In this document: piece by piece, positions 11,513-62,682 of the stretch
Layout: each line of letters starts with the position of its first letter
Position numbering within the stretch: the stretch's first letter is position 1
Program-made: the position numbers and the translations under genes
From: a virus
Virus record (IMG/VR): IMGVR_UViG_3300033168_000001
Location: 60-64,059 of that record
Strand: one strand, 5' to 3'
DNA length: 64,000 nucleotides
Notes under the pieces: generated by a model
Told to the model about the DNA's origin: nothing
Databases searched by the model: none
What the model saw: only the letters and a program-made list of their open reading frames with translations

Positions 11513-11554
11513 AAAGAGCGGCGTCTACATCATATGATGTAGACGCCGCTCTTT
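11513..11554. terminator. Perfect 42-bp palindrome, probable bidirectional terminator
   Basis: AAAGAGCGGCGTCTACATCAT-ATGATGTAGACGCCGCTCTTT, just after the plus-strand operon. Confidence 0.6.
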
Positions 11555-11601: not shown

Positions 11602-12009
11602 CAACAACCTCCCAGGGGACCCCGCCCTTTAGGGCTGGGGAGGAATGGGATCGGCCACGCCGATGGGCCGCGATCGCGGCCCATCAGTGACCGCATCCGT
11701 GGTAAAATACAGGTGAAGTACCGCGCACTCTTAGCCTTACGGAGCCTACGGGATTCCTGGTCGGGTGGCGGGAAACATGCACAGAAGGGCATGGGATAGC
11801 GAAAGCGCCTATCTCTGGTCCACCAAGTGGGCCAAAGAATCTGTCTGAGATATCCGTTCTGTGACGCGCCAAGCTGACAGTAGCTGTTGAGCACCTGGCG
11901 CGCTGGTGTGAGTCCAGCTAGGGTTGAGTCGCAACGTACTCCTCCTGAACGTGCCGCCCAACACGCGGGGCAGGCGCAAGCCCCTGGCTTTAGCCATGGG
12001 GTCGGTGAC
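11602..12009 (+). mobile_element. Non-autonomous IS200/IS605 derivative 1 (PATE/MITE-like, no ORF)
   Basis: Target CCAT on the left; subterminal hairpins CCCCGCCC-TTTA-GGGCTGGGG and AAGCCCCTGGCTTTAGCCATGGGG; ends ..TGAC; no TSD; internal TGGTAAAAT at 11700. Confidence 0.8.
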
Positions 12010-37002: not shown

Positions 37003-37033
37003 CCGACGTCACGCTTTGGTAGCGTGACGTCGG
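37003..37033. terminator. 13-bp perfect hairpin after the capsid gene (terminator or mRNA stabiliser)
   Basis: CCGACGTCACGCT-TTGGT-AGCGTGACGTCGG. Confidence 0.5.
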
Positions 37034-38195: not shown

Positions 38196-38217
38196 AGGGT
38201 GAGCCCTCCTTTAGAGG

Positions 38218-38895
38218 TTAAAGGTCCGCGTAGTCGAGGCGCGGCATGGCCGCTTCCACCTGAGCGAAGGTCGGCTGGCCGGCAGCGCCAGCCAGGATGC
38301 GCGCGTGCCACACGCGCCCACCCGTCAGCACGCCGGGATGATCGGACGCGACGGCCACGAGCTGATCGTAGCCACTCTGCAAGACGGTCTCATTGAGGAT
38401 GACCGTCGTGCCGCGCGCCAGCGCCTGCCGACCATCGGTCGGACTCGCCACGGCCACGCCCAGGGCGTGCGCCTGCGTGGTCGGCGCGACCGTCGTGACG
38501 GTGTTGCCGTTGACCGCCGAGACCTGTACGGTCTCTTGTGTCGCGCCGGTATCGACCAGCAGCGCCTCGCCGGGCACGATACCCACGCCCGAGGACACCG
38601 GCAGCGTCTGCGTGCCGACCGTGGTCGCGGCCGTCAAGGTGACGCCCGTCACGGCGGCGATAGCGGGGCCATACAAGCCGCTGGCCATGATTTCAGCCAG
38701 GACCGTGCCGTAGCGTAGGCCCTTCTGGCCGCTCTTGATGATCGCGCCATCGGTGAGCGTTGTATCACCGACAACGGGCGCGACCGTGGTCCAGTCGAGG
38801 GTGATGCCGCCCGTCTTCCACTCGGGATGGCTATCGGCCGCGACCTGGACCGGCTGCCCAGACGTTGTTAAAGCTTGCCTGCCAAATGAAGCCAT
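38218..38895 (-). CDS. Head decoration protein
   Basis: GGITLDW..V, IKSGQKGLRYGTVLAEIMASGLYGP, with an inserted beta domain. Confidence 0.65.
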   Translation of the reverse strand: MASFGRQALTTSGQPVQVAADSHPEWKTGGITLDWTTVAPVVGDTTLTDGAIIKSGQKGLRYGTVLAEIMASGLYGPAIAAVTGVTLTAATTVGTQTLPVSSGVGIVPGEALLVDTGATQETVQVSAVNGNTVTTVAPTTQAHALGVAVASPTDGRQALARGTTVILNETVLQSGYDQLVAVASDHPGVLTGGRVWHARILAGAAGQPTFAQVEAAMPRLDYADL

Positions 38896-38898
38896 GGT

Positions 38899-40407
38899 TT
38901 ACTTACCTCCCTTAGCGGCGCGGGCGTTCGCCTCGGCCTTGTTCATTTGTTCAGCGTAGGCTTTCGCGGTGGCGACGGCCTGAGCGATGGTGTCATCGTC
39001 GGGTGTGCCCATGACGGCCGACGCCGGTAACACGCCGTGCTTATCCTCGATAAGCTCACGGGTGAGGGGATGCGCCTTGCCCGCCGTCAAGGTGGCTTCG
39101 AGCCGTGCGACGCGTGTTGGTTGACCATCGGCCACGGGACGCGCGACGTCATCCTCGGCGGCCAGCGTGAAGTCGGACGTCAGGCCAGCGCGCGCCGCTG
39201 GCAATGCCTTGTGCGCGCTGATAACGCGCTCCACAGCCGCGCTCACGGTCGCCGCGCGCTCGGCATCGGCGCGGACGTGAGCCTGCGCCTCGTAGGCCGT
39301 AATTTTCGCCTCGGCTTCCTCGGCGCGACGCTGCGCGGCCAGGAACTCCGCGCTTGACGTATACGGTGGCGGCGGCGGCGGTGCGTCATCGGTAGCGCCC
39401 ATACCGGCGAAATCGACACCAGCTTCTTTCGCGCCCGTGAAGAGGTGGCGGAAGAACTCTTTTCCGTCCATGCGTGTACTCCCTTGCTTCTGAGTGCTAT
39501 TGTTGTCTAACGCGGCACGCCTCAGCGGAGGCAGGGCCGCTTGTTTGCCGAGCCAACCCGGCGGCTTGATCTGCCTTGCCTGGATCGTCGCCATGGTTGC
39601 GCTCATGACGCCCTCGTAGCTGCCGATGCGATCGGCTAGGCCCGCATCCACCGCCGCTTGTCCGAGGAATACGCCGCCCTGTCCGAAGTCGGAGAGGACC
39701 GTCGCCTTAGGGACGTTCCGGTTGCGCGCCACCGCTGCCACGAACACATCCATGCAGGTGTCGATGAGCGCCTGTATCTGTGTGCGTCCGTAGGTGGTGG
39801 TCGGGTCCATGCGCTTGTCGGGACTCTGGGAACTGACAAACTCGATCGAGGCCCGGCTACCACCACCCCTGTCGGGTGGACGCGCGGTGGCAATGACGCC
39901 GATACTGCCCACGGTGGCCGTTGGCGCGACGATCACCTCATCGGCGGCGCTGGCGATCCAGTAGGCCGCCGACGCGCCCATGTCGCTGATGTAGGAGGTA
40001 ATGGGCTTCTGGCCGCGCGCCGCGTACACCATGTCGGCGAACTCGGCTGTCCCGTTGACCTCACCGCCTGGACTGTCGATCGCCAAGACGATAGCCTGAA
40101 TCGTGGGGTCGTCGAGCGCCGTGCGCAGATCAGTCGCCAGCGCGTCGATGGACGTGGCCCCGCTGATCTGGCTGAACATGTCGCCGTGGCGGAACAATGG
40201 CCCCTCGATCGGAATTGTCGCCACGCCGTCGCGCACCGTCACGACGTGGGTGTTGTCAAGCGGGCGTCCCAGCTTGGCGGCCACGGCTTCGAGTGAGGCC
40301 AGGTCTCCCTTGTCCATGTGCTCGCGGGCCGCGATGCTCATGATCATTTCTAAGGCCGATTGGGTGATCGCCCATGGAGCGTTCGCCGCCAGATCAAACG
40401 CTCTCAT
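38899..40407 (-). CDS. S49 (SppA/ClpP-like) prohead protease fused to scaffold
   Basis: IVLAIDSPGGEVNG, MGASAAYWIAS, GSIGV, GLADRIGS; helical C-terminal scaffold. Confidence 0.9.
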   Translation of the reverse strand: MRAFDLAANAPWAITQSALEMIMSIAAREHMDKGDLASLEAVAAKLGRPLDNTHVVTVRDGVATIPIEGPLFRHGDMFSQISGATSIDALATDLRTALDDPTIQAIVLAIDSPGGEVNGTAEFADMVYAARGQKPITSYISDMGASAAYWIASAADEVIVAPTATVGSIGVIATARPPDRGGGSRASIEFVSSQSPDKRMDPTTTYGRTQIQALIDTCMDVFVAAVARNRNVPKATVLSDFGQGGVFLGQAAVDAGLADRIGSYEGVMSATMATIQARQIKPPGWLGKQAALPPLRRAALDNNSTQKQGSTRMDGKEFFRHLFTGAKEAGVDFAGMGATDDAPPPPPPYTSSAEFLAAQRRAEEAEAKITAYEAQAHVRADAERAATVSAAVERVISAHKALPAARAGLTSDFTLAAEDDVARPVADGQPTRVARLEATLTAGKAHPLTRELIEDKHGVLPASAVMGTPDDDTIAQAVATAKAYAEQMNKAEANARAAKGGK

Positions 40408-41939
40408 GGTTCACCGTCCTTCGTCTTATCATCCTGATCAGGCGTTTTGTCGCCACTGCCACCAGGCGGCAACATAACCGGCGGTGGTGGCGGTGGCGCG
40501 ATGACGGCGTGTGACTTCGCCTCGATCTCAGCCGGATCAGCTTCCGGCAGTTGATACTTCCGACTGATGCCGGGAAACTGCGACGGCTGCACCGTGTACC
40601 CCGCCTTCGCCAGGGCCACCATGTCGTCCGCGAAGTTCTGCGGCTCACTCTGTCCAAGCGAGAAGCGCGGTGTCAACGGTATCGCGGCGTCGCCGAAGTT
40701 GTAGCGCACCCACGGCCGCGCCACGTCATTCCTGAGCATCTTGGGGATCATCATCTTGGCGTGAGCGATAATATCATCCTGCGTATGCTCATGGACGGAC
40801 GTCGCCGCCAGGCTATGCGCGCTTGTTTGCGCGCCCTGGGCTAGCGTCTGATTGAGCACGGCGACGCTCATTTGCGCGTCGAACAGGCCAAACGCCGCCA
40901 GGAAGTTGTCGCCGCCGCTCGGGTTGAACAGCGTTTCAACGCGGTCGTCTTTCGTAAAGGCCAGGGCCGCGCCTCCGTGATGGGCTTTGAGGCCATTGAG
41001 CATGGCCTGTTGCGCCGGAACAAGATTGTTCTCCCCGTCGTAGACCAGCCCCGATGACGTGTCCGCGAATCCAATGGGCACGGGTGAGGCGTGCTGCGTC
41101 AAGAACTTGCGGTACTCAGTCCACATCTCGACTTTTAGCGTCCACGGCGTATAGGCCGGTCGTAAGATCGACGTACCACGCGGGTCAGAGTCAGCCATGC
41201 GCCACGACAAGACGACGAACTTCTCACGCGGGAAGAGATTGTCCTGTGTCTCAGGATCGTTGATGATCGCGCCCCAGCCAACCAGCGAGGCGCTGTCACC
41301 CGGTATGAGTCCGAGCAGGCCGACGACGTTGCGATAGCTATCAACGACGAAGGCGGTGGAGCGGCGCGGTTTGACTTTGATACTCGTCAGGACGAGGCCA
41401 GCGAATCCGTTCACGTCGCCATCGTCGTAGACCTGCTCGGCGACCTTGTTCCCGTAGGCCAGCGCGTCCATCATGTTCCACAGCACCTCGTCAAGCGAGG
41501 GGGTGAGATCATCCAGCATCTTGTCGCAGGCCGTGGCGATCTCGACGGCGCGGGCGTAGCCGTCCGCGTCCTTGTCGTCGATGGCTGGCACAACGTTCAC
41601 GCCGCCGTTGAGCGTGCCGCTCTTGACGATGTTGAGGCAGGCGGCGATCATCGGGTCACGCGCCATGCGGTCGTAGAGATCGTCGCCAAAGACAATCGTG
41701 ATGTCATCGACGGCCCACGACAGCGCCTGCAGGTAGTTGGTCAACCACAACGCGCCGCCGGCGACGTACTCCTTCGTCGGGTCGGCCGTAATCGTCACGT
41801 CATGCGTCGGCGTCGGCTCACCGGGCAGCGGCGCGATCAGCGGATCAGGCGCGGCGACGGTATCGCTGACCTGCCTCGACGATGAGGAGGACGATGAGCC
41901 GCGCGCGGCCACGGCAGTACTGGTACGGTGATCAGCCAT
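40404..41939 (-). CDS. Portal protein (DUF935 / Mu gp29-like)
   Basis: DLYDRMARDPMIAACL, ALAYGNKVAEQVY, RGTSILRPAY.W.LK, HSLA..SVH. Confidence 0.85.
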   Translation of the reverse strand: MADHRTSTAVAARGSSSSSSSRQVSDTVAAPDPLIAPLPGEPTPTHDVTITADPTKEYVAGGALWLTNYLQALSWAVDDITIVFGDDLYDRMARDPMIAACLNIVKSGTLNGGVNVVPAIDDKDADGYARAVEIATACDKMLDDLTPSLDEVLWNMMDALAYGNKVAEQVYDDGDVNGFAGLVLTSIKVKPRRSTAFVVDSYRNVVGLLGLIPGDSASLVGWGAIINDPETQDNLFPREKFVVLSWRMADSDPRGTSILRPAYTPWTLKVEMWTEYRKFLTQHASPVPIGFADTSSGLVYDGENNLVPAQQAMLNGLKAHHGGAALAFTKDDRVETLFNPSGGDNFLAAFGLFDAQMSVAVLNQTLAQGAQTSAHSLAATSVHEHTQDDIIAHAKMMIPKMLRNDVARPWVRYNFGDAAIPLTPRFSLGQSEPQNFADDMVALAKAGYTVQPSQFPGISRKYQLPEADPAEIEAKSHAVIAPPPPPPVMLPPGGSGDKTPDQDDKTKDGEP

Positions 41940-41971
41940 AAGGTGTGATCCCCTCTCAGTACGTGTCGTGT

Positions 41972-42196
41972 TTAGTAGTGGCCGCCCGTGGCATTCAGCA
42001 CAATGACGTTTTCGCCCAATGGATCAACAGCGATCTTGATGTCGACTTTCGCGCCGGGATACAAGCCGAGGATGTCCATAAGTGTGTCAGGGAGGGCGAT
42101 CTGTTTGTCAGGCGAGCACGCTGTGATGTAGGCATCGGTGTCGATGCGCGTGGGCGAGCGGCGATAGTAGCCGCGTGGTAGAGGGTCAGGGACCAT
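41972..42196 (-). CDS. Small AbrB/SpoVT-like protein
   Basis: KQIALPDTLMDILGLYPGAKVDI resembles the AbrB swapped hairpin. Confidence 0.5.
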   Translation of the reverse strand: MVPDPLPRGYYRRSPTRIDTDAYITACSPDKQIALPDTLMDILGLYPGAKVDIKIAVDPLGENVIVLNATGGHY

Positions 42197-42218
42197 CGCG
42201 CCACCGCCTTAACCGTGG

Positions 42219-43709
42219 TTAGTACGCGGGCACAGTGCCCCAGTCGTCGCGCTCCGGGCCAATGGCGGGACCGCTGTTCGTCGGCATGGCGGCGATCTTG
42301 TTGAACGCTCCGCTTGTGCCGTCCACATCATCGTCATGTGCCCCGGTCGGAAACGCACACATGACCGCCAGGTAGGGGCCATTCCACGGCGCTTCGAGCA
42401 TCCGTACATTGCCCGCGCGTAGCTGGCTGGACGCAGGCTCGGCACGTTCGATCTTGTCGCGGTGAACCGGATCGGCCTGTACGTTGTGGCCAGCCAACAG
42501 CCGGACCACGGCGTCGGTGCTCTCTTTGCCAAGACCAGGCGGCTGCTCAATCCAGGTCTTGACATGGGGGTAACGCAGTCGGTCGGTCTTGGCTGTTTCG
42601 ACGATAACCTTGTTCCGTTCATCGCTTGGCCACTGGCCGCGCACCACGTCGAGTATCCAATAGTAGTTATCACTGGTGCGGCCCATCAGCACACCAACGG
42701 TCCAGTCGCCCTTACCAGGCATGGCGCCCGCTTTGTCCCAATAGCGCACGATAGCGGCGAAGTGCGCGGGCGCGGCTGGCTCTTTGCGAAACCATCCAAC
42801 CTGAAACATGCCGCCGATGCGCGGGGAGGGCTGCTGCTGCATCTGGCCGGCATAGCCGTATGGCCCTAGCATCCGTTTGAAGGCCGCGATCTCATCGGGG
42901 CCAACGCGTTCCGGCCACAACAAGTCGCCCTCTTCGGCGCGCGGATCAATAAAGCCGAGCGACGTCACGCGCGTGGTCGGCTCGTACTCAGCGGGCAAAC
43001 ACAGGTGCTCGTAGCCGCCTTGTGCAAGCGCGTGTCCGGTGAGGTCGCGCTCGTGCAGGCGCTGCATCACGATCACGCGCGCGCCGGTCTTGGGATCGTT
43101 CAGACGCGTGGACATAGCTTCATCCCACCACGTCAGCACCTTCTCGCGTTCAATATCCGACTCAACCTCAAGCATATTATGAGGGTCATCGACCACGACG
43201 CGATCGCCGCCCTCGCCCGTGACCGCGCCGCCCACTGAGGTCGCCAGCCGATAGCCCGTCTTGTCATTCTCAAACTTGATCTTGGCGTTCTGGTCGTCTG
43301 TCAGCCGGAAGACGTGCCCATAGCGCACTTGATACCACGGGCTCTCGATGATGCGCCGGCACTTGAGCGAGTCACGGATAGAGAGGCTATTGGCATAAGA
43401 GGCGAACAGCCAGCGCCGCGCAGGATACTGTGTCCATTCCCAGCAGGGCCAGAACACGGCGACTAACAGAGACTTGGCGTGACGCGGCGGGATGTTGATG
43501 ATGAGGTTGCGAATGTGGCCGGCGCTGACCGCTTCGAGGTGCTGCGCGATGGCCTGCAAGTGCCAGCCATCCACGAACGGCACGCCCGGCTCCACGATGG
43601 GCCACGCCTGACGCATGAACTCATAGAGTGACTGCCGCGCGAGCTCAATATCAATCGCCTGACGCGACGACGGCTTTGCTAGCCAACTGTTGAAGAGCAC
43701 GGAGTTCAT
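42219..43709 (-). CDS. Terminase large subunit
   Basis: LIINIPPRHAKS, VVVDDPHN, VIVMQRLHERD; nuclease domain YWDKA and HDDDVDGTSGAF. Confidence 0.92.
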   Translation of the reverse strand: MNSVLFNSWLAKPSSRQAIDIELARQSLYEFMRQAWPIVEPGVPFVDGWHLQAIAQHLEAVSAGHIRNLIINIPPRHAKSLLVAVFWPCWEWTQYPARRWLFASYANSLSIRDSLKCRRIIESPWYQVRYGHVFRLTDDQNAKIKFENDKTGYRLATSVGGAVTGEGGDRVVVDDPHNMLEVESDIEREKVLTWWDEAMSTRLNDPKTGARVIVMQRLHERDLTGHALAQGGYEHLCLPAEYEPTTRVTSLGFIDPRAEEGDLLWPERVGPDEIAAFKRMLGPYGYAGQMQQQPSPRIGGMFQVGWFRKEPAAPAHFAAIVRYWDKAGAMPGKGDWTVGVLMGRTSDNYYWILDVVRGQWPSDERNKVIVETAKTDRLRYPHVKTWIEQPPGLGKESTDAVVRLLAGHNVQADPVHRDKIERAEPASSQLRAGNVRMLEAPWNGPYLAVMCAFPTGAHDDDVDGTSGAFNKIAAMPTNSGPAIGPERDDWGTVPAY

Positions 43710-44223
43710 CAACGGAGAGGCGCTTGAGGTCGATGGGCTCATAGGCCGCCTCTCCCGTGGGGTTCGTCGGGGCCAACTTCTCGACCCACTGCCCCATCTC
43801 TTGCGCCGCTTGCTTCTCGGCTTGCCGCATCTCACTCATCAGCGCGGAGTCGAACGCCCACTCGCTGCCAAACTCGCCCGGCTTCTCGACCACCAGGCCC
43901 GTTTCACCGTGCGGCCCCGCCTCAGCATGGATCGTCGCGCGTGCGTCAATGAGGTCTTGCATCCGGCGCCAGCGGTCATTCAAGGCCGTCAACCGCCGTG
44001 CCCGTTGCGTGATCGCCAACCGGCCAATCGTTGACGCGTAGCTCGTGTTGATCGCATCGACGCGGGCCTGAAACTCAGGCGTATTCTTCCAGCGAAAAAG
44101 GGTGGTACGCGTCGTGCCGACCGTCTCGCATATTTTGTCATCCGTCAGCCGATCATCGGCCACGAGCTGCGCTGTGTGCTCGCGTTGCGCCGTCCACGTG
44201 AAAAGCGAGGTGGTTTGTGCCAT
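43651..44223 (-). CDS. Terminase small subunit (phBC6A51-like HTH)
   Basis: LVADDRLTDDKICETVGTTRTTLFRWKNTPEFQARVD; upstream of terL. Confidence 0.75.
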   Translation of the reverse strand: MAQTTSLFTWTAQREHTAQLVADDRLTDDKICETVGTTRTTLFRWKNTPEFQARVDAINTSYASTIGRLAITQRARRLTALNDRWRRMQDLIDARATIHAEAGPHGETGLVVEKPGEFGSEWAFDSALMSEMRQAEKQAAQEMGQWVEKLAPTNPTGEAAYEPIDLKRLSVDELRALQQLASKAVVASGD

Positions 44224-44242
44224 TTTATGCCTCACCTCTGGC

Positions 44243-44476
44243 CTACGATCCCTCGCCGATGTGCCCCGACTCAACCATCCAGCGCCAGAACCGCAATCGC
44301 GCCAAATCGTCGCCGTCGAACACGCGATGATACAGCACCTGATAGGGATGCACGTTAGCCCAGCACTCACAGGCCGCCTTGATCCGTTCCACCTCGACGG
44401 GCGAGGGCGGCGCGGGCTTCGGCCCCAACGCGCGTAGCGTCAACGCCGCCGGCTGTGGCCAGGAATAATCAACCAT
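44243..44476 (-). CDS. Small hypothetical protein, first late gene
   Basis: RBS AGGTGAGG; operon position. Confidence 0.5.
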   Translation of the reverse strand: MVDYSWPQPAALTLRALGPKPAPPSPVEVERIKAACECWANVHPYQVLYHRVFDGDDLARLRFWRWMVESGHIGEGS

Positions 44477-44873
44477 CGCCCTCACCTATCGCGGAACGTG
44501 GGGAAGAATGTGTGAGCCGCCATGAGCATCAACCGCGCCGCACGGAGACCCAGCGCGGGACGGCCCCATAGCCCTGGAGGCTGACCACGGAGCGGCGGCC
44601 AGTGTCGGTCGTCAGAAACAAGAAGGGGCCTGCTGGCACGCTGGCCGGGGCTGGCCGCTAGGCCCGTGTTGGCGGTAGCCAACCGCTGTTCACGTGAACA
44701 GACCCTCCCCCACCTCGTACTCTCTATGAGAGGCAAGTTGGGGGAGTTTATTATTATGTCTCGTTGAAGAGACAGTGATACCTGCTGCTACTTTACAGCA
44801 TAATAAGGGAGGCTGTAAAGCCCTTTAAGCCCCTAAAGCACGTATAAGGGGAAATGGCCTTACATGAGGGCTA

Positions 44874-45470
44874 TCAACACGCCTCGTGCTCCTCAGGCGC
44901 TCTCAGGGCATCTAGCTCAGGATCATCGCCTATCTGCTGCTCTTTCAGGCCCTCGTACAGGCGTTTGACCTGCGCCTTGGCAAAGCGGATATAGTCGCCG
45001 GCGGTGGTCTGGTGGCAATGCAGTTCCTCGCCTATTTCCGTTTGGGTCTTGGGCTTCACGTCGTCGTCGAGCGGGTACGCCAAGTCAAGCGCCCTGGCCT
45101 CCGTTGGGTACAGATAGGCCAGGAGCTTGTAGGCTTTGTAGAGCGTGAAGCCGTCCACCTTGCGCAGCAGCGCCGCTTTGACATCGACGTTGTAGACGTG
45201 TGAGCCCTCGTGCTGCTGTTCTGTCAGCGCCTGAAAGTTCACCTCGGAGCGCTCACTGTTCTTCCAACGGTCGCCCAGTTCCGTCGCCTCACCGCGCCGG
45301 ATGGCACGGCGGCGCACCTGCTCTTTCTGATGCGCCGCTTCCCGCTGCCAGCGTTGGTGATACGCCGCCTCTAAAGCGCGCTCTCGGGCGCTTTCCTGTG
45401 CCGTCTTAGGCGTGGGTGGCACGGGGGGCGGCGTCGATGTCGCAGGCTGATCTTTTCTGTTTGAGGCCAT
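44874..45470 (-). CDS. Late transcription regulator with sigma r4-like HTH
   Basis: KTQTEIGEELHCHQTTAGDYIRFAKAQVK; last gene before the terminase leader. Confidence 0.6.
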   Translation of the reverse strand: MASNRKDQPATSTPPPVPPTPKTAQESARERALEAAYHQRWQREAAHQKEQVRRRAIRRGEATELGDRWKNSERSEVNFQALTEQQHEGSHVYNVDVKAALLRKVDGFTLYKAYKLLAYLYPTEARALDLAYPLDDDVKPKTQTEIGEELHCHQTTAGDYIRFAKAQVKRLYEGLKEQQIGDDPELDALRAPEEHEAC

Positions 45471-45532
45471 CTTGTCTATGATCTCCTTCTCGTCGTCGTC
45501 GCCCACGCGGAGGCCGTCGCCCACCGTGGAGA

Positions 45533-46270
45533 CTATGTGTGATCCGCGTCGATAAGCGCCTCGATTAACGCGCGTATCTGGTCACGGTCGAAGTGCCTTG
45601 AAAGGATGCGCGCCGCTCCGATAGGATCGCACGGCACACTGACACGCCTTTTCGCAATGCCTGCCTCTTTCGCCGCCGCATGGACACTCGGAAACTCGCC
45701 CGCTTGCATCCGTTCTAGAATGGCGGGGTGGTCACGCGCGATGCGGGCGGTACCATATTTAGCGTTACCGCTGCCCCTCTCGGAAACAGTGGTGTGATTC
45801 ACACCGCTGTTTCTACCGTCAAGAATATCTCCAATAGTAGGGGGGGGCGGTGTCGCGCCCGGAACCTCCTTGTCTTTGACCGCGTTCTTGTTCCCTCTCA
45901 TGGCCTGTTCGAGAGTGAGTTGGGGTGTTGCGCCGTAGGCGCTTGCCTGGGCGGTCTTGCGATCTTCGATGAGGCGGTCAATCATCGCGGGTGGCATCCC
46001 CAGGCCGTAGGGTAGGCGTGCCAGGCAGAAGGCCGTGAAGTCCGCGAACGGTCGCCCCTGCTCATCAGTCAGTTGCTCATACCCCTTATGCGTGAGCATG
46101 AGACGATACATCGCGTCGAGGTGGGACGCGTCAGCCTTCATATCGTGGAGTGTGCCCTGTAATTCCAGGCGCACCGCGATAGCCCAGTCACGCGAGCCCG
46201 GCGTGGCCGTCAGGTTGCCCGCATGGTCGAAGCCGCCTAGCGCGGCAGGGGATACAGGTCGTGTAGCCAT
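45533..46270 (-). CDS. Phage hypothetical protein
   Basis: YGTARIARDHPAILERMQAGEFPSVHAAAKEAGI motif. Confidence 0.6.
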   Translation of the reverse strand: MATRPVSPAALGGFDHAGNLTATPGSRDWAIAVRLELQGTLHDMKADASHLDAMYRLMLTHKGYEQLTDEQGRPFADFTAFCLARLPYGLGMPPAMIDRLIEDRKTAQASAYGATPQLTLEQAMRGNKNAVKDKEVPGATPPPPTIGDILDGRNSGVNHTTVSERGSGNAKYGTARIARDHPAILERMQAGEFPSVHAAAKEAGIAKRRVSVPCDPIGAARILSRHFDRDQIRALIEALIDADHT

Positions 46271-48189
46271 TCCCACACCCTTTTTAGCTGCTCTTCGGTC
46301 ATCTCATCACGCGCCGTCTTGAACTGTCGGAGAATCTCGGAATTGAGTGTCCCAAAGGCGACCCCCGTGTTTGACTCAAAACGACCCGTGTAGGTCGCAA
46401 TACTCTTGCGCAACAGACGCTCCCGGCGGCTTCCAGGCGTGTCGGGTAGAGGCGGCATATCGGGCGTCACAGCCTCACCGCACGCCTTGCGCATATGGAA
46501 ACTGTCCATTGTACGTTTAAGAACGATAGGGTCAAGGAGCCCTGCAAGTCCGTTCTCACTAATGCAAGAGAGGAGCAGCGCCGTTTCGCCATGGTCGATA
46601 GATTGACCCGTGGCTAAATCGAAAGCACGCTCACGAGCAACCTGGCCCGCGAGAGGAATAACGTTTCCCATCACGCGCGTTAATTCGCCATCGTCCACCC
46701 TTGCCGTATCTTGGTCGATATCCCGTTCTCGACTGTCGCGCACCACTGATTCTTGCTCTTCGCGAATTTTGTCAACGCACTCCATCAGAAGGCGATCATC
46801 GGGGCAGTAAATGCGCCCTACTTGCTCGTCATAGGAACCGCCTTCCGCATCGACGCGAACGGCCCGCGCCAGCATTTGTTCAATCCATGGTCGGCTGCGC
46901 ACATGTGTGAGACACGCCAGGTGCGTAATAGCCTCGACATCAAGTCCTTCGTAGGCCATTGCTACGGTGACGAGCACATCTAGCGCCCCTGGCTTAGAGC
47001 ACGCCCGACTAAAGCGCTCAATGGTCGCGACCGCCGCTTCGGAGTCATCACTAGCCGCGATCTCAGCATCGGTGATGCCCATTTCCTTGAGCCTTTTAAC
47101 ATACGTTTTGGCGACGTCAATGCGCGGCGCGACCACCAACAACTTTCCACTCCGTCGATGCATGCGGTATTGCTTCCAATCGCCCGCACATCGTGCAAGA
47201 AGATGGAATGCGAATTCGGTACGGAGCGCGGTATAAATGGCGTTAGGAGCTTCGTCGTCGTCAACAGACGCCAGGCCATCAACAGATTGCTCCGCACCAG
47301 CCCTATCGAGCCAACGAAGAGCGCCATCCACAACGGCAAAATGGAGGGGTTTGATAGCGCGATCTCGCAGCGCCTGAGTGCGACTATATTGAATGTACGG
47401 GGTTGTCGGCGTGGTATTTTCAAGCGATAACGCGGGCCTGTACTTTCCCTTACCAACATATTCGTAGGGCAAGTGGGCGATACGCCTGCCATCACCCCGC
47501 TCCCACGTTCCGCTCATATAGACCGTTAAGACAGCGCGCTCGATCAGAGGTCGTGTCGCGCGATCCCATTCCCCGCCTTCATCGCAGTGGTGCGGCTCAT
47601 CGAGAAAAAGGATGTATCGTTTGGTGTCAAATTCTTGCCGTTGCATCGAAGCACTGTCCGCCACAAGGGATTGGTACGTTGTGACGTATCCGCTCCTGCC
47701 GCGCGTTGGATTGTACACATTGCCAGCCACGCTGATCTCATTATGATGGCCGATCATCGCGCGATATTCAGGTTTGATGAATTGCTTTTCAGCTTGCTCA
47801 CGGAGCGCCAAACGGGGGACGACCCAGCAAATCGCATCCGCCACTTTAGGCAGCAAGCGGTGCGCTGCTATCACAGGTAAAAGACTCTTCCCGCCTCCCG
47901 GCGTGACCGCCACAAACACTTCTTTAACCGGAACGCCCGCCGCGATCTCCTTGCACATTCCATCGAATTGAGATTGAAAACTCCGCAGCATCCTAACCCC
48001 CTTCTTCCTGTTACACGAACGACATAACGCCCGCATCTCGTGCACGTTCGTTCGATGCGTGACCGACCACGGCATGATATGATCAGCCTCCCAATCGTCG
48101 CCCAGCGCGCATCCGCACGCCGGACATTGCCCTTCCGCCGCATACCACAACGCGCCGCGTAACGCCTTGGACCGTAACGTCCGTCCCAC
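46237..48189 (-). CDS. HNH nuclease-SF2 helicase fusion
   Basis: CPACG..WEADHIMPWS..ALCRSCNRKKG, then TPGGGKS, LFLDEPHH, MSGT, EGLD, QMLARAVR. Confidence 0.8.
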   Translation of the reverse strand: MGRTLRSKALRGALWYAAEGQCPACGCALGDDWEADHIMPWSVTHRTNVHEMRALCRSCNRKKGVRMLRSFQSQFDGMCKEIAAGVPVKEVFVAVTPGGGKSLLPVIAAHRLLPKVADAICWVVPRLALREQAEKQFIKPEYRAMIGHHNEISVAGNVYNPTRGRSGYVTTYQSLVADSASMQRQEFDTKRYILFLDEPHHCDEGGEWDRATRPLIERAVLTVYMSGTWERGDGRRIAHLPYEYVGKGKYRPALSLENTTPTTPYIQYSRTQALRDRAIKPLHFAVVDGALRWLDRAGAEQSVDGLASVDDDEAPNAIYTALRTEFAFHLLARCAGDWKQYRMHRRSGKLLVVAPRIDVAKTYVKRLKEMGITDAEIAASDDSEAAVATIERFSRACSKPGALDVLVTVAMAYEGLDVEAITHLACLTHVRSRPWIEQMLARAVRVDAEGGSYDEQVGRIYCPDDRLLMECVDKIREEQESVVRDSRERDIDQDTARVDDGELTRVMGNVIPLAGQVARERAFDLATGQSIDHGETALLLSCISENGLAGLLDPIVLKRTMDSFHMRKACGEAVTPDMPPLPDTPGSRRERLLRKSIATYTGRFESNTGVAFGTLNSEILRQFKTARDEMTEEQLKRVWEWLHDLYPLPR

Positions 48190-48190
48190 T

Positions 48191-48523
48191 CTATATCCCC
48201 TTGTCTTGCACGTCCTCAACCGACGTCGCCACCAGACACCGCGCCCCGTGCGCCGTCAAGCGCGCCGCCATCGCCGCCTGGATAGGCGTCGGCCGTTTGC
48301 CGGGCCGCTTCACCTCCACGAAGAGGGGTGGCTGGCCGTCCTTAATCGCCAACAGGTCCGGCGTCCCTGGCTCCCCCATCCTGACCGGACGGCCCTGCTG
48401 GTTGAGCAAGGCCCCCGCGTTTTGCCGGAGGACGTGCCAGCCCTTGAGCGTTAGATACTGGATGATGGATCGCTGTATCTCCGCTTCCGTCGCCGCCAGT
48501 TGCTGCATCGCCGCTGCTTTCAT
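48191..48523 (-). CDS. VRR-NUC domain nuclease
   Basis: TEAEIQRSI, GEPGTPDLLAI, LFVEVKRPG.RPTPIQ. Confidence 0.85.
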   Translation of the reverse strand: MKAAAMQQLAATEAEIQRSIIQYLTLKGWHVLRQNAGALLNQQGRPVRMGEPGTPDLLAIKDGQPPLFVEVKRPGKRPTPIQAAMAARLTAHGARCLVATSVEDVQDKGI

Positions 48524-48795
48524 CGCTTATACCCCACAAGCCCCGCACCGTGTTTCGCATCCTCGCAGTGAGAGGGGATTTCCGCACAATGGGGACACAA
48601 GGCCAACACATAGTCGCCTGGGCCAGCGAAATAGCGCGCCATCGTGTCCGGCCTATCCCGTTCGCAGCCAGGGCAATACCACACGCCACCGTCTATCGGC
48701 CCCGTCGCCATGCGCGTGCCGTCATGGAAAAGGGTCATCTCATGCGGCTCGACTATGAATCCGTCTGGTACTGCTTTCATGATCCCCGCCTCCAT
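48520..48795 (-). CDS. Small Zn-finger protein
   Basis: YCPGC...LCPHC. Confidence 0.45.
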   Translation of the reverse strand: MEAGIMKAVPDGFIVEPHEMTLFHDGTRMATGPIDGGVWYCPGCERDRPDTMARYFAGPGDYVLALCPHCAEIPSHCEDAKHGAGLVGYKR

Positions 48796-49212
48796 CCCCC
48801 ATCCATCACCGCATCACACAGCCACGGGATCGTATGCCGTGCCACGTTATCGTCGATCCATTTGACCCGCCTCCATCCACCCCGCTTCCATCGCCCGTAC
48901 ATGCGGGCCAGCGCACACGACCACGGAACGATGTGCCGGCCTGTGTGATCGTCCAGCCAGTTGACGCGCATCCAGAACCGCCGCCGTCGTGCAATGGCCG
49001 GCCAATGGTACCGCCGCCTGGCCCGCGTCGGGCTGTACACCCGCCGCCGCACGGTGATGCGATCTAACACGCGCTCAACCCGCTCCTGGTCGAGGCGCTG
49101 CCGCTCGGCCGCCGCCCATTCGCACTCACTCATCGCCGTGCCCTTCCGCTCCGCCAGCGGCGCACCGCGCACCACCACAACCTGCCGACCATAAACCGCA
49201 CCTTTGCGATGT

Positions 49213-49440
49213 TCATACCTGCACTCTCCACTCTTTCAATCCCGCATACCGCAGCGCTTCGGCGCGGCTCACACGCCACAAATAGTAGTGGTCGAAAGTG
49301 CCTGACCAGTGGTGTTCCGGCTTCCCTGGGAGGTGCAACCGCACGACCGTATGGCCGCGCCCATCCTCATCCAATTTGACCGCCAACACACGCGGATCAT
49401 TGTGGGTGGATGATCGCCAGTACACCCATTTACGGCTCAT
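49213..49440 (-). CDS. Small hypothetical protein whose ATG abuts element 2
   Basis: MSRKWVYW...; ATG immediately follows the element boundary at 49441. Confidence 0.6.
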   Translation of the reverse strand: MSRKWVYWRSSTHNDPRVLAVKLDEDGRGHTVVRLHLPGKPEHHWSGTFDHYYLWRVSRAEALRYAGLKEWRVQV

Positions 49441-49802
49441 ACGATGGACCTCCCAGGAAACCCACCCTCTTTAGGAGTGGGAGGAATGGGACCGGCCCCC
49501 CGCCAGTCGTGGTATAATAGAGACAGCACCACACGAAAGGCACGAACCTCCGGGGGACACAGTTTTAGCGTGTGCGGCAGCGCCAGCGGGTGACGCCGCC
49601 ATCGGCGTCGAGGCAGGAGTAAGCCGAGAGAATCGGCGGGACGGCGGCTGCATGGTCCTGACTCCTGTTGTGGTCGGTCGTACACCCTCGGGTGGCCGGA
49701 GCAGTCCGGTTGTAGTGCGGCCGGGAGGTCCGCCCCCTGTGTCGGGTATCGAAAGGGGCAGGGCTGCTGAAAGCCCACGGCTTTAGTCGTGTGGCACATT
49801 AC
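49441..49802 (+). mobile_element. Non-autonomous IS200/IS605 derivative 2
   Basis: Target TCAT; left hairpin CCCACCCT-CTTT-AGGAGTGGG; right hairpin AAGCCCACGGCTTTAGTCGTGTGGC; ends ..TTAC; TGGTATAAT at 49510. Confidence 0.85.
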
Positions 49803-50035
49803 ACCCCCTCCTCCACCAACATGGCCGGCCTGTGCCCCCACTGCCGGCAGTCCTCGCAGCGCGTCAGCACCATCAACACGCGCCCTGTTTGATCTCTGAC
49901 TGTCCAGCATTTGTCCATCAGCGCGTGGCTCGCCTCCGTCATCAGCGCGCCACAACAGCAACACTGATCTGGCCTTTCGTCGACGTCCTCTGACTGATCG
50001 ATCCATGCCTCCATGCCCTCGTGTTGTGTCGTCAT
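49799..50035 (-). CDS. Small Zn-finger protein
   Basis: CCCCG...RCEDC; its stop codon lies inside the element 2 terminus. Confidence 0.55.
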   Translation of the reverse strand: MTTQHEGMEAWIDQSEDVDERPDQCCCCGALMTEASHALMDKCWTVRDQTGRVLMVLTRCEDCRQWGHRPAMLVEEGV

Positions 50036-50595
50036 ACCGCTCCCCATCCCCTCTCCGCACATCGCGCTTGCGTGCGCCAGTACATCGCCTCCATCTCCGC
50101 CCGCCTCGATCGCTCCCTCTGCCGTCCTGAGCGCTGCTGCCTCAGCGGAGGCCGCCCCGCGTCCACACGCCACGCCGCCAGCTCCTGCCCCACCACCGCC
50201 CGACGTAGCGCCCCCAGCAGCGTGAGCGCCTCATCGTAGCCCGTCATCTCTGGCCGCTCCGGCGGCGTCCACCCACACGGCGCCAGGATGTGCCCCAGCG
50301 CATCGCCCAGCAGCGCCCGGCGTGCGTGCTCTCCGCCAGGTTGGAGCTTCCGCATCATCACCCCGACGCCGTGGATCACCGTTGTGTGGTTGCGGTGCAC
50401 CTCACGCGCCGCCTCCATCAGCGTCAACCCCGCCCAATAATAGAGCGCGGTCATCAGCGACTGCCGCGCGTCCGTGATCGCCTGGTGGCGGTCCCTCCCC
50501 GTCAGATCGTCCGGCGTGTAGCCGTAGTAGTCCTCGACCTGCTGCCACACGATGTCGGCGCGCTCCTGCTTCGTCTGTGTTAAAACGGTTGTCAT
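50032..50595 (-). CDS. DnaA domain IV-like HTH protein
   Basis: VEDYYGYTPDDLTGRDRHQAITDARQ..M...GLTL..AREVHRNHTTVIHGV, the Bac_DnaA_C signature. Confidence 0.75.
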   Translation of the reverse strand: MTTVLTQTKQERADIVWQQVEDYYGYTPDDLTGRDRHQAITDARQSLMTALYYWAGLTLMEAAREVHRNHTTVIHGVGVMMRKLQPGGEHARRALLGDALGHILAPCGWTPPERPEMTGYDEALTLLGALRRAVVGQELAAWRVDAGRPPLRQQRSGRQRERSRRAEMEAMYWRTQARCAERGWGAV

Positions 50596-51350
50596 GACAC
50601 CACTCCCTCTTTCCGCGCTTGCCCCGTCCCCGTCCCCCGCGCCCGCTGCTTCGTCCCTGGAGCGTTGACGCCGCTTGTGGCGCTGCTTATGCCGTGCTGC
50701 CTGCTCCCGTGGCTGTCTATCTCTCTGAACGCCGCTCCGTCCGTCTCAGCGCGCGTCAGGGGGTGATCGCACAGCCACGCCGCCTGATCCGCTTTGGCTT
50801 TGTCATCTAAAGCGGATCAGGCGGCGCCATAGGGCTGGCTCTGTGCGCGGCGTAGCAGGCAGATCACACACAGGCCGTCGCGCCAGGGCTCGTGATGGCG
50901 GCAGCCGCAGAGACCGGCCTTGAGCGCCGCTTGCTGGGCGCGAGTCAGCGCGAGCGGCGTGGTAATGGGTTTGATGGACGTGGTCATAGCGTTACCGCCC
51001 GCGCCGCTTCGGCGTCCAACTCCGCGATGCGCCGTCGGATGGCCCGCGCCGCCGCCTCCGCTGAGTCCAGGTCCGCCTCGTCCATGCCCGGCCGCTCTAA
51101 ACGGTTGAGCGCCGCCAGCAGCTCGCCGCGCTCCTGCTGGCGTTGACGCGCCGCCAGGGACCAGGCGCGACGTCGCGCGCGATACTCCTTGAGCCAGCCT
51201 GTCTCGCTCGCTCTCGTTGGTGTCAGTCGTGTGTGCATTGGTGGCCTCCCTCGGTCCGGTAATAGTAGCGGTAATAAATGTATGACCAGTCGAGGAGCAG
51301 GACCGCCGCGGTGAAGATCGCTATTTTGACGGCCTGTACGCACACGGTCC

Positions 51351-52490
51351 TTACGCGCTCCATGGGGCGTCCTCCTCGTCGAATAAGGCGTGCTGTGTCG
51401 CCGTCGGGGTCTCAGACAAACACGCGGGGCTGATCCAGAGGCGCTCCCGTTCGGCGTTCCCTTTGTCGTGAGACTGATAACCCGCTCGCTGTTTCCAAGC
51501 CACGACACGCCAGTCCGCAGGCGCCGTAAACTCGCCGTCGTAGCCGCACAATATGACGCGAAGGAGCGGGTTGTGCCAGTTGGTCTTACACCATTCCACG
51601 ACTGACTCAGCCACATTGCTCTTGACGCCGTACAGATCGCTCCCTGTCTCATAGGGAGGGTCGAGGAATACAGCGGTCATGCCATGCTTCTCCGTCACCG
51701 ATGGCCCCATGACGCGCGACCAATCGCCACAGACGACGCGCACCCGGCGTAGGCGTGCCGCCAATAGGTGAAAGTAGTCAACGAGGCCACCTTGGGAATG
51801 ACGGTCGCGGTGGACACCGCGACCGTCATTCCCAAGGTGGGGCAACTGATGCCGGGGCCGGTGGACACCGGCCCCGGCATCACTGAGCGCCGGAAGCTGA
51901 TGGGTGGCCGTGAGGGGACGCGGGGCGCGGTGGACACCGCGCCCCGCGTCCCCTAAATGAGGAAGCTGGATGGGGGCCGTCACGTCGCCCTGTGGGCGAT
52001 GCTGGCCGCGGTGTCCACCGCGGCCAGCATCGCCCAGGTGCGGTATCTTGACAGCGGGCTCGCCATCGACGCGCAGCGCGGCCACGTCGCACCACCCATG
52101 TCCAATCCAGGCGCATTGTCCCCACACCCACCAGCCCGCGATGTTGGCATCGTAGTACGCCGGGTCGGTCATCATGCGCTCACACCACGTCGATTGATTC
52201 AGAAGCCAACGGTGACGCGCGTGCAGGTCCGCCTCATTCACCGGCCAGTCGGTGTAATGCGCCACCGCGTCGGGATCAGCGGCCACCGCACGCCACCAAT
52301 TAGCGATGTAGGGGTTAAGCTCGTTGACGGTCTCGGTCTTGCCCTCCCACTCAGGACGCGCCAGGAGCACCGCCAGGCTTCCGGCGAAGGGCTCAACATA
52401 GTTGGTCGCGTCTCCGAAGTAGCGCCACGCTAGATCGCCCACACGGCTCTTGCCGCCGAAGTACGGGAAGGGGGACGGCATGGCTCTCAT
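51351..52490 (-). CDS. DNA adenine methyltransferase (D12/Dam-like) with an internal repeat insertion
   Basis: FPYFGGKS, YVEPFAGS, VFLDPPY. Confidence 0.88.
   Translation of the reverse strand: MRAMPSPFPYFGGKSRVGDLAWRYFGDATNYVEPFAGSLAVLLARPEWEGKTETVNELNPYIANWWRAVAADPDAVAHYTDWPVNEADLHARHRWLLNQSTWCERMMTDPAYYDANIAGWWVWGQCAWIGHGWCDVAALRVDGEPAVKIPHLGDAGRGGHRGQHRPQGDVTAPIQLPHLGDAGRGVHRAPRPLTATHQLPALSDAGAGVHRPRHQLPHLGNDGRGVHRDRHSQGGLVDYFHLLAARLRRVRVVCGDWSRVMGPSVTEKHGMTAVFLDPPYETGSDLYGVKSNVAESVVEWCKTNWHNPLLRVILCGYDGEFTAPADWRVVAWKQRAGYQSHDKGNAERERLWISPACLSETPTATQHALFDEEDAPWSA
51787..52036. repeat. Array of four perfect hairpins with conserved apex GGTG(GA/TC)CACC
   Basis: Stems of 26 bp (51787-51840), 17 bp (51847-51882), 20 bp (51913-51954) and 21 bp (51993-52036), each with a 2-nt loop. 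Confidence 0.92.
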
Positions 52491-52659
52491 GCGGCCACCG
52501 CGCCCTCTCGCCCCGAGGCCAGCGCCCGCGCCGTACCGGCAAACACCGGCCCGAACGACCGCCCCGTCGCCATGTGCCACCGCACGCGGACGCACGCCAC
52601 CAGGGCCGGGAAAAGAAGGGGGTATACGTTGCCAAGAAAAGAGGGGCCGAGTGGTATCT

Positions 52660-52835
52660 TGGACATCTTGGCAATCTTGGCAACGTATAGGTTTTTCAGG
52701 TTGCCAAGTTCCCTATAGGTTGCCAATATATATATAGGTAAATATATATAGGTTGCCAAGATGTCCAACAGGGACACCCACGGCCTGCAACTTGGCAACC
52801 TAGTCAGGCTATTTTCAGGCGCACGGCTATAGGTT
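52660..52835. repeat. Putative phage replication origin
   Basis: Several (G)GTTGCCAA/TTGGCAAC copies in both orientations around TATATATATA runs, just downstream of the helicase gene. Confidence 0.6.
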
Positions 52836-56064: not shown

Positions 56065-56474
56065 CTAGAACCTCCCAGGATACCCCCGCCCTTTAGGGCT
56101 GGGGAGGAATGGGATCGGCCCCTGGGCGATGGGCTGCGTGAGCAGCACAGAGCCCCCATCCATCGGGCGATCCGTGGTAAAATAAGGGTAACGTTCCGCA
56201 AAGGCACAAGCCGTTGACCAACGGCGGGAACACGGTTTCGTGTGGACGTGCGTGGTACCGGATAGCAATGGGCTATCCGATGAGGCAGGGGTAAGTCGAG
56301 AGAATCGACGGGACGGCGGCTGCATGGTCCTGACTCCTGTTGTGGTCGGTCGTACACCCTCGGGTGGCCGGAGCAGTCCGGTTGTAGTGCGGCCGGGAGG
56401 TCCGCCCCCTGTGTCGGGTATCGAAAGGGGCAGGGCTGCTGAAAGCCCACGGCTTTAGTCGTGTGGCACATTAC
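56065..56474 (+). mobile_element. Non-autonomous IS200/IS605 derivative 3
   Basis: Target TCAT; left end like element 1; right 193 bp near-identical to element 2; TGGTAAAAT at 56175; ends ..TTAC. Confidence 0.85.
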
Positions 56475-56806
56475 AGGTGTGCGAACTCCAATCAGTCAGA
56501 TGGTCGATTAACGGGTGATGAGATAGACGATGTTGGACCACTCCAACACGCCCACGATGAGCAGCGCCAGGGCGATCCACCAGTCGTCTTTGAGCGTGAC
56601 CACCAGGGCTACGACGGTGAACTCGATCAATAAAGCCCACACGAGGCCCCTCCAGACGCGGTTGTAGCGCTCTCCAACGACGCTACGATGCCATGCGGGG
56701 CGATAGGGGCCACCCTCGCAACAAAGGCGCAGGACGTGGTGCTCTGGATGCGGCGTGATGACACGCCTGGATGGTTGCTGTGAGCTGCTAGCTGTGGGGG
56801 TCATCA

Positions 56807-57792: not shown

Positions 57793-58343
57793 GAGCCATA
57801 CCCTTTCAAGGCCAGCTTGATCTCGCGTAAGGCGTCCTCGACCTGACACGACGTGTCAGGTCGAGGATTATCCAGATAGGCGTCCCGCGCCATCTCAATG
57901 GCAACATCGGCCAGCCCCTCCAGGATGGCGACAATGGCGCGCTCAGTCGCGGCGCTCATGACCGGTCCCCGAGGAGGGCCACGGCCAGCCGCGCCACAGC
58001 CTGCTCCGTCTCGATCTGCGCGAGGCTGTGCGGCACGCCCGTGCGGGCCGCGTCCAGCTCGTCGAGCCACAACAGCAGTTGCACCTCCACCACGGCGCGT
58101 GAGATCGGGTGGCCCGCGCGCACGAGGTCCATAATCGCCGCGATGTTCCGGTCGGTGTCAGAGCGGGGTGAACTATCTGATTGACAGCCCCGCGCAGAGT
58201 TATGTATACTGCGGGCAGATGGTGTGTTAGCTGCATACATCGTTCTTCCGTTGATCCTTTCCCGGCTGATGTGCTCCACACATCAGCCGGTTTTGCTATT
58301 CCTCGGAGCCGCCACGGAGCGGGGCGTCGGGTTGTCTGTGCAT

Positions 58344-62466: not shown

Positions 62467-62682
62467 ATGAGCCCTACACCATCATCTCCGGTCCGTGGTG
62501 GAATTAATTCCACCACGGCGCCCTGCCCTACCCTCGCCGCCGAGCGCGCCACGTACGCCTATGCGGGCAACGGCCGGTTCATGCCCGCCAACGCCGCCGC
62601 CTGGCGCGAGGTAGACGCCTGGAATGAGTACGCTACGATGATGACGGACCGCAGCGCGGCCGCGAGGAGCCTACGCCAATGA
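62467..62682 (+). CDS. Small hypothetical protein, paralog of 11021-11212
   Basis: Shared G.GR..PAN.AA..E..AWNEYA motif. Confidence 0.55.
   Translation: MSPTPSSPVRGGINSTTAPCPTLAAERATYAYAGNGRFMPANAAAWREVDAWNEYATMMTDRSAAARSLRQ

Follow-up and report, generated by a model that had tools for sequence, protein, structure and literature searches.

Four perfect DNA hairpins lie in frame within the gene for a predicted adenine DNA methyltransferase of a phage, and we consider that these "coding palindromes" were probably made, and are kept perfect and flipped, by replication template switching, as a tolerated product in a permissive linker of the protein. The DNA analysed, hereafter the window, is a stretch of 64,000 nt within a 66.2-kb IMG/VR virus record (IMGVR_UViG_3300033168_000001), and the gene occupies positions 51351-52490 on its minus strand. 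The palindromes are restricted to one repeat-encoding linker; two haplotypes of the phage differ by inverted loops and by an arm change that has its mirror image in the partner arm; and palindromes of this kind recur in scattered lineages of the same protein family. These observations point to replication as the mechanism, and suggest that the hairpins would be a tolerated by-product and not a selected device.

Four hairpins in a repeat-encoding linker

Each hairpin has a 2-nt loop. The arms are 26 bp long in hairpin D (51787-51840), 17 bp in hairpin C (51847-51882), 20 bp in hairpin B (51913-51954), which has a G+C content of 85%, and 21 bp in hairpin A (51993-52036). All of the stem pairs (84/84) are Watson-Crick, with zero mismatches and no G-T pairing. 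The same apex, CGGTG-NN-CACCG, caps all four at spacings of 51, 69 and 81 bp, and in coordinate order the plus-strand loops of the window read GA, GA, GA and TC. The window contains four copies of this 12-mer, where shuffles predict 0.34, and no further copies were found in the rest of the 66.2-kb record. Folded as single-stranded DNA, a 281-nt stretch containing the array gave -125.9 kcal/mol, compared with -59.7 ± 4.0 for shuffles (z = -16.5). G+C content is approximately 66%; there was no AT-rich stretch and no shared iteron beyond the codon-determined 12-nt apex, and an Rfam search of the hairpins returned only generic microRNA-hairpin matches, all of them sub-threshold. The hairpins had been described in an earlier, sequence-only reading of this DNA, and when recomputed on the window that description (positions, arms, apex, loops, spacings and frame) was correct throughout.

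All four hairpins are in frame within the longest minus-strand open reading frame (51351-52595, 414 aa), which is shortened to 379 aa by starting at the ATG used in the gene calls of relatives. They fall in a repeat linker (51786-52049, minus strand) made of four units of the form (Q/K)(L/I)PHLGxAGxGVHR, each followed by a non-canonical "mirror" peptide. On the gene strand, the hairpin centre is the Val/Gly codon of G-x-G-(V/G)-H-R, and the 5' arms encode (I/L)P(H/A)L(G/S)xxGxG(V/G)HR. The canonical (H)LGDAGRG is encoded by the 5' arm of units A, B and D. Their 3' arm is the 5' arm's reverse complement, shifted in reading by one base, and it encodes the non-canonical peptides HRGQHRP, HRAPRPL and HRDRHSQGG. 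Unit C is reversed, with an aberrant 5' arm (AGAG versus AGRG) and a near-canonical 3' arm (HRPRHQ versus HRPSQQ). As the canonical arm is on the 5' side in A, B and D and the near-canonical one on the 3' side in C, overwriting of one arm from its partner has occurred in both directions. The shared apex corresponds to the codons CGC GGT GTC CAC CGC (R-G-V-H-R), which on their own form a 6-bp stem with a 2-nt loop.

In an AlphaFold2 model based on a 45-sequence alignment, residues 130-231 of the 379-aa protein were coil with a predicted local distance difference test score (pLDDT) below 50, compared with 85-94 in the flanking methyltransferase halves. Given this low-confidence coil and the variable repeat copy number across the family, the hairpins probably occupy a variable, disordered linker.

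Haplotypes, homologs and the methyltransferase gene

We compared two haplotypes. Type I consists of the window, runs X1 and X2, and contigs L070 and L071; type II consists of L068, L069/L398 and run X3. The 90% protein cluster has five members, all of which are type I or type II, and a search of the metagenome collection for other haplotypes, using a pattern spanning three apexes, matched the type II contig only. Over 1245 nt the two types differ by three substitutions in the 1059 nt outside the hairpins and by 10 nucleotides in the 186 nt inside them. Three of the four loops (units A, B and D) are exactly inverted between the types, exchanging GA with TC and therefore Gly with Val. The gene-strand loop of A is GA (Gly) in the window and TC (Val) in type II, seen on the plus strand of run X3 as 52014-15 TC>GA; that of B is TC (Val) in the window and GA (Gly) in type II; and that of C is identical in both. 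In addition to its flipped loop, hairpin D of type II carries 51805-06 TC>GT, mirrored by 51821-22 GA>AC in the partner arm, a single instance of such a change. All four hairpins are perfect in both haplotypes.

Three exact dinucleotide inversions together with a mirrored double change go beyond point mutation and require a templated process. The sequence-only reading had argued that protein-level selection cannot explain the symmetry and that something keeps it, and this stands: the four hairpins remain perfect despite three inverted loops and a mirrored arm change. Its further suggestion of inversion between hairpins does not, as the segments between the loops have the same orientation in types I and II; this collinearity excludes recombination between different hairpins.

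Type II DNA was 97-98% identical to the window in the best-matching stretches, which include the gene, and 84-93% identical in other segments of a mosaic alignment. Outside the hairpins the gene differs by 0.3% between haplotypes, versus roughly 4% in the flanks, and this lower divergence suggests that its history is mosaic or recombinant. All three of the outside substitutions (51351-52595 versus L068/L069) are non-synonymous (C>R, V>A and E>G), and unit D of type II has lost a conserved Arg. L398 (JAABUV010000618.1) is itself a mosaic when aligned with 38215-52747 of the window, blocks of 96.5-98% identity alternating with blocks of 84-93%, and part of its methyltransferase-to-helicase region is rearranged or replaced relative to the window.

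That the palindromes or loop orientations are sequencing or assembly artefacts is hardly credible. The hairpins were present at word depths of ~190-880 in the Logan contigs (k = 31) of three runs, which come from three rock-metagenome studies. Type I was found in the Logan contigs of two runs as well as in the IMG/VR record, and type II was identical in a JGI assembly, the NCBI record of the same contig, an ENA/MEGAHIT k141 assembly and Logan. Some signs of the kind an artefact would leave do exist: contigs of one sample break at hairpin B with poly-G/C tails, a second hairpin-bearing lineage (L169, below) is split across the hairpin zone in its second sample, and run X3 holds a low-depth loop-GC variant (a 46-nt contig at depth 6.7 versus ~880) that is as likely an error as a variant. 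However, different assemblers agree within a sample, depth is high, the reading frame is intact and the downstream domains are conserved. Assembly artefact, which the sequence-only reading had named as a threat to its account, is thus very unlikely, given that the four perfect hairpins recur in three studies and under JGI, ENA/MEGAHIT and NCBI assemblies. The breaks at hairpin B, where contigs of two runs end and where G+C content is highest, are a matter of sequencing difficulty and not the source of the palindromes.

A de Bruijn fold-back artefact was considered and rejected, as whole hairpins are spanned by k141 contigs and the 2-nt loop lacks self-complementarity. Public contigs that end in the hairpin zone are known from both this phage and the L169 lineage (L070 at 1-40, L071 at 1-20, L276 at its end and L277 at its start), some with poly-G/C tails. 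In practice, such coding palindromes cause assemblies to break in genes of this methyltransferase family.

All homologs examined, from 61 IMG/VR loci and among 120 database proteins, have a tandem peptide repeat at the same place, between GWWVWGxCxWIGxGWC and the catalytic half. The repeat has the consensus (Q/K)LPHLG(D/N)AGxGV(H/N)R, often with a PSQ tail, in one to more than eight copies. In homologs with canonical repeats, complementarity at this apex was no more than chance: at most 11/22 bases were complementary and no perfect arm of at least 11 was found; nor was there pre-existing quasipalindromy in homologs with 14- or 18-aa units (L073-L075, L057 and L031), in which just 5-11 of 22 bases were complementary. 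The sequence-only reading had looked to homologs for variation in unit number and for arms that change together: unit number does vary, and the change in hairpin D is one case of the latter. It had also allowed that homologs might keep the peptide repeat while the palindromy was unique to this phage and inert. Homologs do keep the repeat without palindromy, but this phage is not alone in having the palindromy, and the palindromy is not inert.

We screened an unbiased set of 149 distinct family genes, gathered by protein homology, for perfect arms of at least 11. Six genes carried perfect palindromes (arms 11-20); about 94% of the family members sampled lacked them. All 10 palindromes of this set were in the linker (41 kb), with none in the other 139 kb of the genes. 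An apex scan of IMG/VR identified two more carriers: L120, with five hairpins (arms 11-14; loops C, AA, ATTTA, GA and CTGT), and L169, with four (arms 14-23), of which hairpins 1-3 were confirmed, identical, in a second sample. No flip was seen in that second sample of L169; L120, L237 and L239 had no close IMG/VR relatives. Altogether, perfect in-frame palindromes occur in at least eight other, phylogenetically scattered lineages, all in the repeat linker. On a quick family tree, from which a motif filter left out L239, L268 and L358, the carriers are scattered (6 changes for 7 rows, versus a shuffled mean of 6.9).

Hairpin identity is binary, with 19 perfect hairpins versus one imperfect (score at least 12). 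Loop sequences, stem sequences and hairpin centres differ among lineages, with no common apex in the others, and the direction of templating differs among both units and lineages. Codon phases are biased 13 : 9 : 1, third-to-third position pairing being avoided. Four lineages have palindromised units with a non-canonical GGHR tip (loop GA); none of the canonical units counted had this tip, and it may be read as the flipped state. A genome-wide palindrome excess in hairpin-bearing phages was not evident in the flanks of L120 and L169.

The gene was matched by PF02086 (32.6 bits versus a cut-off of 22, E 9.2e-8), in its N-terminal part only, and by phrog_56, "DNA methyltransferase" (E 8.6e-24). 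In the protein (P0001), the S-adenosylmethionine-binding motif I EPFAGSLAV (residues 68-76) precedes the catalytic motif IV DPPY (residues 312-315), and both motifs are invariant across the 45-sequence alignment. Judged by these matches, the product is a D12-class, Dam-like (alpha-type) N6-adenine DNA methyltransferase. The nearest solved structures in a PDB profile search were 7m6b and DpnM (2dpm), matching the N-terminal part only. Homologs number more than 7,999. At the DNA level the gene had no match among 50,697 phage records, and a protein search found relatives at 40% identity or below only. The neighbouring genes encode an AAA_25 ATPase, RecT, a DnaA_C-type helix-turn-helix protein and an HNH-superfamily 2 helicase, and the locus is therefore a replication and recombination module.

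Origin and upkeep of the hairpins

Template switching, one of the options raised in the sequence-only reading, fits every observed change. It is known to create perfect stems in a single event, to yield compensatory changes of several bases and to invert loops (PMC8794818, PMC5453318). First inferred in phage T4, it is now a defined mutational pathway in E. coli (PMC7202029), and bacteria preferentially conserve inverted repeats that are perfect (PMC5941160). The features by which it is recognised are present here: the arms are exact reverse complements, one of them derived relative to non-palindromic outgroup units; spacers are inverted exactly with the arms unchanged; and a multi-nucleotide change is mirrored.

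We propose that the process would run as follows. The family would carry a G+C-rich tandem repeat encoding a disordered Gly/Arg/His-rich linker, in which short self-complementary codon runs, such as the R-G-V-H-R codons of the apex, could act as seeds. Occasionally the nascent strand would pair with itself or with the sister strand at a seed, copy the opposite arm and then resume on its template, so lengthening the stem and overwriting one arm with the reverse complement of the other, which would give rise to the mirror peptides. New mismatches would be erased by later events, leaving mirrored arm changes, and a cross-strand switch would invert the loop, toggling GTC (Val) and GGA (Gly). The survivors would be those products that are in frame and in the tolerant linker only.

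Several points weigh against this account. The evidence for flipping comes from Logan contigs of separate samples, and there is only one mirrored arm change, which may represent one or two events. Stems of 17-26 bp exceed most reported template-switch products in coding DNA, and with all three outside substitutions non-synonymous, the selective state of the gene is uncertain. The hairpins also cluster by gene, involving all four units here, five in L120 and four in L169, and three genes of the unbiased set had at least two hairpins compared with 0.33 expected (Poisson). Such clustering is not predicted by a purely random neutral process, and an extra cause is therefore needed: palindromic units may have spread or been duplicated within the array, switching may have risen in particular lineages, or the hairpins may be selected (as DNA or mRNA structure or as a Gly/Val toggle). 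We rate these causes, combined, as rather unlikely.

It is unlikely that the hairpins are selected cis-acting DNA or mRNA structures, with template switching merely their origin. Structures of this type might control how much methyltransferase is made, by way of translational pausing, RNase III-type cleavage or mRNA stability, or might provide a single-strand or cruciform signal in the replication module. Consistent with this, hairpins cluster within genes, members of the family have acquired them repeatedly in one and the same part of the gene, the array folds with extreme stability, the gene lies among replication and recombination genes, and all four hairpins are retained in both haplotypes although the genomes differ by ~1-3.5% over the best-matching long stretches and by more elsewhere. 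However, the great majority of sampled family members do without hairpins, the carriers form no deep clade, and neither loops, stems nor hairpin centres are shared between lineages. The 84 Watson-Crick pairs without a G-T pair argue for DNA templating rather than RNA-level selection, and the sub-threshold Rfam matches and the lack of an AT-rich stretch, or of an iteron beyond the apex, also count against a cis-acting structure. An iteron-type origin inside a gene (lambda ori-like) has identical repeats beside an AT-rich region, whereas here only the codon-determined apex is shared and no AT-rich stretch is present. Self-regulation through GTNNAC, a methylation target class contained in each apex, had been suggested in the sequence-only reading; this motif occurs at chance frequency (213 versus 226 ± 16 expected), the apex merely reflects the R-G-V-H-R codons, and the hairpins of other lineages have other loops. 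We regard as very improbable a programmed diversity device, in which frequent loop flip-flop would place Gly or Val at each tip (16 combinations) and alter the DNA handling of the linker. Three of the four tips do differ between near-identical phages, by one residue each (Val or Gly), at a position otherwise nearly always V, I or L in the family. Yet the linker is poorly conserved and its predicted state is disorder, Gly in place of a conserved hydrophobic residue resembles damage rather than design, unit D of type II has also lost the conserved Arg, and the whole stretch is a single contig in run X1. A selected, self-renewing array, whether a high-frequency Gly/Val flip-flop cassette (16 isoforms, DNA-facing linker) or an expression-setting cis structure, is distinctly unlikely; were it true, the repeated gain and within-gene clustering in at least nine lineages would reflect selection for hairpins.

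Maintenance or movement of the hairpins by a dedicated enzyme, such as a Y1/HUH transposase (RAYT/TnpA) or a serine invertase or resolvase, or as an in-frame mobile palindromic element, is highly improbable. Palindromes with a 2-nt asymmetric core do superficially resemble invertase crossover sites, and such an enzyme could be host-encoded. However, a family search of the 66-kb record found no match to Y1_Tnp (PF01797), Resolvase (PF00239) or RVT_1 (PF00078) at E ≤ 1, and the single match to TnpB-type PF07282 scored 11.2 bits versus a cut-off of 26.3. Only the loops invert, and the arms still match their own partners, whereas recombination between different sites would break this matching. Substrates of the repetitive extragenic palindrome (REP)/RAYT or IS200/IS605 type are many dispersed, conserved hairpins accompanied by a Y1/HUH transposase; here the apex occurs at four places only. 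Serine-invertase sites (hix/gix-like) involve a recombinase gene and inversion between two sites, unlike the collinear segments of this array. Thus, with no matching gene in the record and no dispersed copies of the apex, the Y1/HUH enzyme or resolvase offered by the sequence-only reading found no support. Rickettsia palindromic elements are mobile palindromes inserted in frame, dispersed copies of one element that decay with time. Like the array, they show that palindromic DNA can be tolerated in open reading frames (they are also mentioned in PMC6649704); unlike them, the stems here are perfect and homologous to the gene's own repeat units rather than copies of an element, and the apex is found nowhere else in the record.

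Known systems and other repeats in the window

The sequence-only reading knew of no described system like this one. We find instead that template-switch-maintained coding palindromes are a described kind to which the finding belongs, and that it is no new system, although the literature searched contained no description of coding palindromes in phages or methyltransferases. One parallel is in yeast coding DNA, where template switching homogenises the arms of perfect inverted repeats within open reading frames, for arms >9 bp only, and reversibly and exactly inverts 2-5-nt spacers between close strains (PMC8604942). An inverted spacer in yeast alters one residue or two, as in TCC>GGA (Ser>Gly), much like the Gly/Val exchange here. 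Yeast genes, however, have one repeat each with arms of ~10-16 bp, whereas this gene has four with arms of up to 26 bp, and gain has been repeated in one protein family.

The nearest phenomenon on record is the perfect, binary, dynamic and phase-biased coding palindromes of nematomorph mitochondria, where template-switch conversion was proposed and function is unknown (PMC6649704). These are likewise long perfect repeats in translated genes, with dynamic gain and loss and a reported bias against phase 3 pairings (PMC6649704). They occur in another genome type and reach 284 bp, and both of their arms encode conserved protein regions; here, in contrast, the repeat linker that holds the arms is disordered and poorly conserved, and the mirror peptide encoded by one of them is evidently derived. 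Quasipalindrome template-switch mutations (Ripley 1982; the E. coli thyA/lacZ reporters of PMC7202029; PMC5453318, PMC8794818) are alike in that imperfect repeats are made perfect, compensatory changes or loop inversions arise in single events and a short seed is sufficient. Those cases are single hotspots, RNA genes or non-coding DNA, whereas here four in-frame stems of 17-26 bp, known from sequence comparison, lie in one protein-coding repeat. Phase-variable methyltransferases, or phasevarions (PMC7383803, PMC1557822), share a hypermutable repeat tract inside a DNA methyltransferase gene, but their tracts act by simple-repeat frameshifting or by recombinase shuffling of recognition domains, while here the frame is kept and a 2-nt loop inverts.

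With four long perfect stems and two haplotypes that differ by flips and a mirrored change, the array is an unusually clean natural case of template switching on a protein-coding gene, and one protein family has repeatedly gained coding palindromes solely in its disordered repeat linker. Clustered, multi-nucleotide, non-synonymous differences between phage strains can accordingly arise without positive selection. The array is a compact substrate of ~250 bp on which hairpin flipping and arm conversion could be measured in the laboratory. If the clustering reflects selection, it would indicate a new means by which phage methyltransferases are regulated or diversified.

Other repeats occur elsewhere in the window. 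A repeat of ~195 bp is present twice, at 49610-49805 and 56282-56475; its copies adjoin the RecT gene and the gene downstream of the DnaA_C helix-turn-helix gene, and a single 196-bp stretch of L068 matches both at ~98%. A perfect 42-bp palindrome at 11513-11554 (21-bp arms, no spacer, centre CATATG) and a second palindrome of 24 bp at 11662-11685, both outside the methyltransferase region, may be an operator, a recombination site or a telomere-resolution-type site. More perfect inverted repeats, with arms of 12-16 bp, lie at 57835-57867, 62493-62518, 37003-37033 and 58262-58290. Outside the methyltransferase gene, the window has six inverted repeats with arms of at least 12, or ~0.09 per kb, and the flanks of homologous loci have ~0.03 per kb (arms of at least 11).

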